Below, in pieces: positions 32,324 through 33,837 of a stretch of DNA of 64,000 nt; position 1 is the stretch's first letter; the number at the start of each line of letters is the position of its first letter. This DNA comes from Escherichia phage KK4: the sequence record OR327750.1, one strand, 5' to 3'. The notes beneath the pieces were generated by a model. It was given only the letters and a program-made list of their open reading frames with translations. It did not search any database and had not been told where the DNA came from. The position numbers and the translations under genes were made by a program.

Positions 32324-32391
32324 GTTATCGAGTTGGTGCCATTATATACATCATTTTCTGATTGTGTTTTGCGTGCTTTCAAAATGAAGAA

Positions 32392-32407
32392 AGGGGCCGA
32401 AGCCCCT
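32392..32407 (-). terminator. hairpin terminator downstream of hoc
   Basis: AGGGGC-CGAA-GCCCCT perfect 6-bp stem; on the minus strand it is followed by TTCTTCATTTT. Confidence 0.5.
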
Positions 32408-32418
32408 TATGATTATGA

Positions 32419-33837
32419 TTATGGATAGGTATAGATGATACCAGTTTCTAAAGCAGTTTTATGAATGATGTATCCATTACGTGATTCTTGGACATCAACT
32501 TCTGGATAGTCTTTCATCATCTTCTGAAGAGTGTAACGATGCAGGTAGTATTTACTATCTGGATCTTCAGTTTTCCAATCTTTACCTTCTTCAGTCATTT
32601 TTTGGATTTCATCCATAACCCACCAACCGCACCAGATGTAAGCTGAGCTACGGTGTGGAAGAGGATGAACATAAGGTAATTCACCTTCTGGTTCTGGAGC
32701 AACTTTATCGGTTACCTGAACTTGACCTTCTGCCGTAATAGTTTTGCTATCATAATCAGCAGCAGTAACAGTTGCAGTAACTTCAATAGTTTGACTTCCA
32801 ATAGATGAGGTATCAACGGTGTATACATTAGTTGACCCTTCTACAGGAGAAGAATCTTTCTTCCATGAATACGCAATTTGCGCTTCTTCTGGAGCATCAG
32901 TGACATTAGCGGTAAATGTAGCCGAAGCATCTTGCTGGACGTTAATAGAAGGAGGAGTCAATGTAACCTGTGGATTCATTGTCTTCTTATTAACAGTTAA
33001 TGATACTTCATTCGAAGTAACTGTTTTTGCGTCATAATCCGCTGCTGTTACTTGGGCTACGCATTTAATTCTTTTTACTCCACTTGTAGTTGGAGTATAG
33101 TTAAATGTAGAGTTAGTTTCTCCACCAACTTGTGAATCATCTACATACCACTGATACGTAGCAGACGCTCCAACGGGTTGAGAAGCTAAGGCAGCAGTAA
33201 ATTGAACTGGGGTTCCAATTACTCCAGCTGAAGGACTATCGGGAGTTACTGCCAAAGTAGTTGTCTGTGTCTTTTTATTAACAGTCAGTGACACTTCATT
33301 AGAAGTAACGCTTAGTGCATCATAATCTGTCGCAGTTACTTGAGCCACACACTTAATTCTTTTTACCCCGCTTTCGACAGGAGTGTAATTGAATGTAGCA
33401 GAAGTTGCTTCGCCCACAGGAGAATCATCTACATACCATTGATAAGTAGCGTTTGCGCCTGATGGCTGCGAAGCTAAAGCGGCAGTAAATTCAATAGCTG
33501 TTCCGATTACTCCAGCGCCAGGGCTATTAGGAGTTACAGCTAAGGTGGTCGTTTGTGTCTTATTTTGAACTGTGATAGTTGTAGTAGCTTCTGCTGTTTC
33601 AGCATCAGTATCTGGGACTGGGTTTGTTGCAACTACTTTAATAGTCTTTTGACCGGCAGGTCCTTTTAGTACATAACTAAAAGTTGCTTCAGCTCCATCT
33701 TGTGGAACATCATCTACAGTCCAAGCATATGTAATAGGTCCATCTCCAGTTTGACCACTGGGTGTAGCAGTAAACTGCTGAGTCTGATCTATAACTCCAG
33801 TAGGTGTTTTAGGAGTTATATCAACTGTAAAAGCCAT
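32419..33837 (-). CDS. hoc: highly immunogenic outer capsid protein Hoc, four Ig-like domains
   Basis: 472 aa; N-terminal domain and C-terminal capsid-binding region match my memory of T4 Hoc (376 aa); an extra tandem copy of the second Ig-like domain explains the additional ~95 aa. Confidence 0.9.
   Translation of the reverse strand: MAFTVDITPKTPTGVIDQTQQFTATPSGQTGDGPITYAWTVDDVPQDGAEATFSYVLKGPAGQKTIKVVATNPVPDTDAETAEATTTITVQNKTQTTTLAVTPNSPGAGVIGTAIEFTAALASQPSGANATYQWYVDDSPVGEATSATFNYTPVESGVKRIKCVAQVTATDYDALSVTSNEVSLTVNKKTQTTTLAVTPDSPSAGVIGTPVQFTAALASQPVGASATYQWYVDDSQVGGETNSTFNYTPTTSGVKRIKCVAQVTAADYDAKTVTSNEVSLTVNKKTMNPQVTLTPPSINVQQDASATFTANVTDAPEEAQIAYSWKKDSSPVEGSTNVYTVDTSSIGSQTIEVTATVTAADYDSKTITAEGQVQVTDKVAPEPEGELPYVHPLPHRSSAYIWCGWWVMDEIQKMTEEGKDWKTEDPDSKYYLHRYTLQKMMKDYPEVDVQESRNGYIIHKTALETGIIYTYP
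32983..33552 (-). repeat. tandem direct duplication (2 x ~285 bp) encoding two diverged copies of an Ig-like domain within hoc
   Basis: translated units QTTTLAVTPNSPGAG...SLTVNKKT and QTTTLAVTPDSPSAG...SLTVNKKT; about 17 substitutions over ~95 residues by manual alignment. Confidence 0.8.

Follow-up and report, generated by a model that had tools for sequence, protein, structure and literature searches.

A long, four-Ig hoc allele with two domain-2 modules in Escherichia phage KK4

The hoc gene and its surroundings

We analysed a stretch of 64,000 nucleotides from Escherichia phage KK4 (OR327750.1; hereafter the window), in which the minus-strand open reading frame at 32419-33837 is hoc, encoding a protein of 472 aa as opposed to the 376 aa of T4 Hoc. 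Both lengths had been given in a first-pass annotation made from the letters alone, and both are borne out. The gene is 100% identical to the CDS WIL00192.1 of GADU22 (OQ944321, Tequatrovirus). Its product matches PHROG 1149 (‘Hoc-like head decoration’, E=1.9e-137) and, by phmmer, the T4 Hoc chains in the PDB (5vf3_Z/8t1x/8t9r, E=3.6e-222), and a Pfam search returned PKD above the gathering score along with weaker matches to Ig_2, Ig_3 and I-set. As in T4, inh lies upstream, 24.3, 24.2 and rnlB lie downstream, and uvsW is on the other strand; the order inh-hoc-24.3 (near genes 24 and uvsW) is common to the window, GADU22, T4, RB18, RB68, teqskov, ime09 and others. The PHROG family, the T4 chains and this synteny agree with the assignment of the gene as hoc that had been made beforehand.

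32419..33837, minus strand: hoc CDS, long four-Ig allele, highly immunogenic outer capsid protein (472 aa plus stop codon)
32381..32408, minus strand: strong terminator-like GC-rich hairpin AAGGGGCTTCGGCCCCTT with a T-rich tail, 10 nt past the hoc stop codon

The records of G9062 and G29 annotate a ‘putative transcriptional terminator’ at the position of this hairpin. On the hoc strand, the T4 late-promoter core, TATAAATA, is absent from the region immediately upstream of hoc and of inh; the window as a whole contains it 20 times, mostly on the plus strand, the expectation from shuffled sequences being 9.4. No tRNA genes were found within the window. An antisense open reading frame of 72 aa runs inside hoc at 32819-33037 on the plus strand and is in all likelihood a by-product of the coding strand.

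The tandem module and the predicted fibre

Tandem Repeats Finder reported a period of 288 nt in 2.0 copies at 32980-33561 (score 663), and a repeat search resolved two in-register 288-nt copies, 32980-33267 and 33268-33555. The two units are in codon register (aa 95-190 and aa 191-286), and both start with QTTTLAVTP and end with SLTVNKKT; the borders originally proposed for the repeat, 32983-33552, lie at most 3 nt from the exact ones. Of the 96 residues in each unit, 79 (82%) are identical between the two, the 17 that differ being exactly the number that had been estimated by manual alignment; at the nucleotide level, 215 of 288 positions (75%) are identical. By codon position the differences number 14, 11 and 48, and the codon changes comprise 39 synonymous versus 17 non-synonymous ones. 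Compared with the other pairs of Ig domains within the same protein, which are 28-40% identical, the 82% identity of the two units stands out, and their likeness is far above chance.

Alignment with T4 Hoc by phmmer pairs residues 1-113 of the window's Hoc with residues 1-113 of T4 Hoc, and residues 189-472 with residues 93-376, the latter at near identity (E=6.8e-172). Since the two blocks are colinear, the window's protein holds exactly one 96-aa module more than T4 Hoc, and the alignment places that module where the first-pass annotation had seen an additional copy of the second Ig-like domain. The layout of the gene is as follows, from the N-terminal to the C-terminal end of the protein:

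33556..33837, minus strand: Ig-like domain 1, aa 1-94 (all-beta 4-91, pLDDT 80-92; borders as in the misc_feature of RB30 AY101183)
33268..33555, minus strand: repeat unit 1, aa 95-190, domain-2-type Ig module of type ‘A’ (pLDDT >90, all-beta; PKD/Ig in Pfam)
33283..33300, minus strand: first NEVSLT motif, aa 180-185 (from the translation)
32980..33267, minus strand: repeat unit 2, aa 191-286, domain-2-type Ig module of type ‘b’, corresponding to domain 2 of T4
32995..33012, minus strand: second NEVSLT motif, aa 276-281, created by the extra unit (from the translation)
32695..32979, minus strand: Ig-like domain 3, aa 287-381 (Ig_3/I-set at aa 289-373; all-beta 290-376)
32419..32694, minus strand: C-terminal capsid-binding domain, aa 382-472 plus stop codon, near-identical to T4 Hoc 286-376 (homologous region ~281-376)

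The best PKD stretch in the protein is at aa 195-254, in unit 2, and phrog_21694 matches aa 408-472 (E=1.4e-41). Outside the repeat, domain 3 is 86-98% identical at the nucleotide level to domain 3 of other T-even hoc genes, and the region of the capsid-binding domain is 95-99.6% identical across phages. Structure prediction, which had been proposed as a check on the repeat, was run with AlphaFold2 on an alignment of 39 sequences and yielded four Ig-like all-beta domains (approximately 4-91, 99-187, 194-283 and 290-376), with pLDDT mostly >90 across both repeat units. Confidence for the C-terminal domain modelled in isolation was low, as expected where a domain folds against the capsid. In a Foldseek search against the PDB the best matches were four-Ig and multi-Ig adhesion proteins; TM-scores were low because the angles between domains differ, and RB49 Hoc was absent from the top 50 matches. 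The alignments and the model show that the window's Hoc keeps an intact T4-type capsid anchor together with four Ig-like domains that are predicted well. Judging from the near-identical capsid-binding domain, one such Hoc would sit at the centre of each gp23 hexamer and would be dispensable for infectivity.

The T4 Hoc fibre is ~18 nm long (PMC10385173), and the extra module should lengthen a fibre of this kind by one Ig domain, or ~4 nm. It would also provide a second domain-2 surface, including the NEVSLT motif. In the Hoc of PNJ-9, a two-Ig variant, residues S183/L184/T185 of the NEVSLT motif in domain 2 are needed to bind fucosylated MUC2 (PMC11853027). A functional gain from the extra module, in fibre reach or in mucus binding, is plausible, and the first-pass annotation had likewise offered this link as an inference. 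However, in the 376-aa Hoc of PNJ-6 it is domain 1, and not domain 2, that binds MUC2 (PMC11150434), which makes the gain to be had from a second domain 2 uncertain.

Occurrence of the four-Ig form and its relatives

In the phage collection, the 47 highest-ranking matches to hoc are without exception of the 1419-nt form, each in one piece. Among ~600 full-length T-even matches, frequencies of the long and short forms were taken from two evenly spaced 60-row samples with 56 full-length records each, in which the long form accounted for ~18-19/56 and ~22-25/56 records; its share of the sampled T-even records is thus ~35-40%, and most of the others have the T4-like form of 1131 nt. At the protein level, the best 120 of 895 clusters include 81 of 376 aa, 29 of 472 aa and 8 of 568-570 aa, and some of the 472-aa clusters among these hold 58-167 member sequences.

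The same architecture was deposited in GenBank in 2002 for the hoc gene of RB30 (AY101183), as a CDS of 1419 nt with Ig-like domains at codons 1-94, 95-190, 191-286 and 287-381 and with a repeat_region note stating that an intragenic repeat gives rise to an additional immunoglobulin-like domain. The moskry genome record likewise annotates a repeat_region inside hoc. The literature searched contained nothing on the RB30 hoc repeat or on GADU22, and earlier knowledge of the exact feature comes from GenBank annotations, together with general statements on varying Ig number. The novelty implied in the first-pass annotation thus does not hold: among the closest relatives a four-domain Hoc is the usual form, and RB30 had already been annotated with one; these records show the four-Ig hoc to be an already known, common allele class (RB30 type). 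The literature describes Hoc homologues with 1 to 10 Ig-like domains (Fokine et al. 2023, PMC10385173). The Hocs of phages S143_2 and W143 are both of 376 aa and have no bearing on domain number (PMC13390416), and the passages on ‘duplication’ in PMC10580926 are unrelated to the hoc repeat.

Like the window's Hoc, RB30 Hoc (AAM52483.1) has 1419 nt and 472 aa with the same domain borders, and the two genes are 91.6% identical in nucleotides (92% in unit 2, 85% in unit 1), the differences being allelic only; unit 1 is more mosaic in RB30 than in the window, being b-like at its 5' end. T4 Hoc is colinear with and near-identical to the window's Hoc in domain 1, domain 3 and the capsid-binding domain, at the same inh/24.3 locus, whereas T4 has one domain-2 module, mostly of type b with small type-A patches, in place of two. 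At the other end of the series, the five-Ig Hocs of UGKSEcP1/UGKSEcP2 and TOPO13 (568-570 aa) share with the window the gene, its flanks, the 96-aa module and the order A then b, but have three tandem modules, the third being of a further type (97% identical to unit 2 of ime09). The two-Ig Hoc of PNJ-9, the four-Ig Hoc of PMBT63, the ten-Ig Hoc of Serratia phage Muldoon, the four-Ig Hocs of the IMG/VR loci L006 and L007 and the two-Ig Hoc of locus L012 all resemble the window's in carrying a string of Ig domains on a conserved C-terminal anchor; they differ from it in being built of other modules, at 35-50% protein identity. In the four-Ig Hoc-like protein of Klebsiella phage PMBT63 the extra domain is inserted at Lys109-Glu209 (PMC13435897).

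The IMG/VR scan covered 21 loci, too few for a census, and included a sister clade of Hocs (starting MAYTV...) that are ~48-50% identical to the window's. Two members of this clade, L006 (472 aa) and L007 (471 aa), have an independent tandem duplication of domain 3, with copies that are 56% and 75% identical in amino acids, respectively; L008 has three Ig domains, and L012 (282 aa) is a two-Ig form without domain 2. The duplication of domain 3 and the absence of domain 2 within a single sister clade indicate that gain and loss of whole modules is recurrent in Hoc.

Module types, origin of the repeat and direction of change

Genes were found with one, two or three domain-2 modules in tandem, always as exact 96-codon units, giving proteins of 376, 472 and 568-570 aa. 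Two modules are also present in teqskov, moskry, ime09, G9062 and the IMG locus L002, and three copies were confirmed at the DNA level in UGKSEcP2, three metagenome contigs and TOPO13. The two modules of the window have different nearest counterparts: unit 2 is 92% identical in nucleotides to the single domain 2 of T4, PhiZZ6 and RB68, while unit 1 is 95-96% identical to unit 1 of teqskov and moskry and 90% to the single domain 2 of RB18, as opposed to only 78% to that of T4. At 71 diagnostic sites, unit 1 of the window scores as A at 69/71 and unit 2 as b at 65/71, and the order of a type A module (PV.EAT...) followed by a type b module (QVGGETN...) is conserved in the two- and three-copy genes. 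Between the two units, dS is 1.58, dN 0.127 and dN/dS 0.08 (Nei-Gojobori), whereas the flanking domain 3 and C-terminal domain have a dS of 0.07-0.38 among the same phages. As the dS between the units lies far above that of the flanks and each unit has closer counterparts in other phages, A and b are two old paralogous sequence types. Both modules are under purifying selection, and the divergence between them was not built up in the lineage of the window.

These features bear directly on whether the repeat is real and how old it is. Short reads can mis-assemble tandem repeats, and some deposited hoc genes (SHFML-11, G29) are frameshifted, so that one might ask whether the second copy is a spurious expansion made during assembly. 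The copies differ, however, at 73/288 nt, and no identical run between the types exceeds 17 nt, so that reads can be placed without ambiguity; the frame is unbroken, most differences between the units are synonymous, and the 1419-nt gene recurs in metagenome contigs and in many isolates of independent origin. With 25% nucleotide divergence, an intact frame and many independent genomes of the same form, an artefact is ruled out, its probability being negligible, and the earlier view that the repeat is genuine, which had been argued from the divergence of the copies, is upheld. That domain 2 was recently duplicated in this lineage and diverged in place, as the novelty implied in that view would require, could be read from the tandem, in-frame arrangement and from the 82% amino acid identity of the units against 28-40% for other domain pairs. 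Yet, across all the phages sampled, the flanking hoc domains show a dS that is smaller than the 1.58 of the units by a factor of 4 to 20; each unit is closer to modules in other genomes than to its neighbour (95-96% for unit 1 of teqskov/moskry, 90% for RB18, 92% for T4); and the architecture is common to hundreds of independent genomes, including RB30, sequenced by 2002. The dS and the closer cross-phage matches refute a recent duplication, which we consider highly improbable. What stands of the original description as a diverged, evolved duplication is that the copies are diverged and under purifying selection; in view of the cross-phage matches, the divergence did not arise in this lineage.

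Taken together, the comparisons show that the window holds the long hoc allele with a real and functional repeat, one member of a series of 1-3 modules found across Tequatrovirus-like phages. The explanation as a whole, in which copies of old sequence types are gained and lost by unequal recombination, is very probable. According to the mechanism that we consider most likely, a gene composed of Ig domain 1, two tandem 96-aa domain-2-type modules, Ig domain 3 and the conserved capsid-binding domain would change its copy number by unequal homologous recombination between modules, and the setting for such module exchange may be the heavy recombination of T-even replication together with co-infection. 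Exchange of modules between genes is seen in UGKSEcP2, whose first and third units are 98% and 97% identical to the first and second units of ime09 and flank a b-type unit; in this pair the difference in copy number thus amounts to the gain or loss of the module in the middle. On the other hand, with 17 nt as the longest perfectly identical run between types A and b, homologous unequal exchange between these copies would be inefficient.

As to the direction of change, the single-copy genes are informative. In four of the eight examined at the DNA level, the single domain 2 is a chimera that switches from A to b, at about nt 50 in IMG_L003, ~60 in IMG_L004, ~180 in O157kw and ~221 in RB18; of the other four, IMG_L005 is nearly pure A, PhiZZ6 and RB68 are nearly pure b, and T4 is b with short A patches. 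No b-to-A chimera was present among these eight genes. A classification of 82 single-copy protein clusters gave 44 Ab, 19 AA, 16 bb and 1 bA. The A-to-b polarity is what one would expect where the two units of a tandem gene undergo unequal crossover, and thus points to an origin of the short hoc from a two-copy gene; in reading these counts, the clusters are not independent events (Fisher p=0.057) and the DNA test comprises 8 genes. In the two-copy genes, too, unit 1 often has a b-like 3' end (13/31). The polarity is suggestive, and only suggestive, of many single-copy hoc genes, possibly including that of T4, being deletion derivatives of a two-copy gene.

A broader scenario, in which a two-module hoc is ancestral in Tequatrovirus, T4 Hoc is a deletion derivative, and the locus is a cassette array of 1-3 copies drawn from at least three old types and reshuffled within and between genera, is one that we put forward tentatively, judging it somewhat less than evenly probable. 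The converse order of events, with single-copy genes ancestral and T4 in the original state, would have A and b diverge, or be imported, as single-copy alleles that unequal exchange during co-infection later joined. Both types do occur as the sole domain 2 (mostly A in IMG_L005 and RB18, mostly b in T4, PhiZZ6 and RB68), modules move between genes, as seen in UGKSEcP2 versus ime09, and hoc alleles cross genus labels, as in the Mosigvirus moskry, whose gene is 95.6% identical to that of the window. Such joining of alleles nonetheless leaves unexplained why the deep divergence is confined to the 288-nt module between similar flanks, why A always precedes b, and why single-copy chimeras run from A to b and almost never from b to A; in addition, the first tandem junction would require illegitimate recombination. 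We therefore regard it as unlikely.

As a discovery, the extra domain carries little weight, being a common allele annotated since 2002 in a family whose variation in Ig number is described in the literature; what is mildly novel is the possibility of an ancestral four-Ig form, with T4 Hoc as a product of deletion. If the array of 1 to 3 copies is what it appears to be, it would constitute a mechanism for population-level variation of a surface adhesin and antigen. For users of these phages in therapy, mucus adherence or Hoc display, the 376-aa architecture of T4 is not a safe default, as at least one third of the relatives would carry a longer fibre. The series of one, two and three domain-2 copies also provides natural, near-isogenic material for relating fibre length and module number to mucin binding and immunogenicity.

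Some further hoc alleles were met in the course of these comparisons. The hoc gene of moskry (MN850651, Mosigvirus; 151-1569 of the locus) is 95.6% identical in nucleotides to that of the window, and that of OZ035759, also labelled Mosigvirus, is ~95% identical, which suggests that hoc alleles may be exchanged across genus boundaries. The genes of SHFML-11 (KX130861) and G29 (MK327940), of 1420 nt and 1474 nt, have broken frames, the CDS being called from an internal start in one record and split in two in the other; these breaks represent either sequencing errors or real inactivation of hoc. In phage T2 (MH751506), the hoc homologue (1117 nt, 151-1267 of the locus) is unannotated and frameshifted, with the first stop at codon 62, and is an apparent pseudogene.
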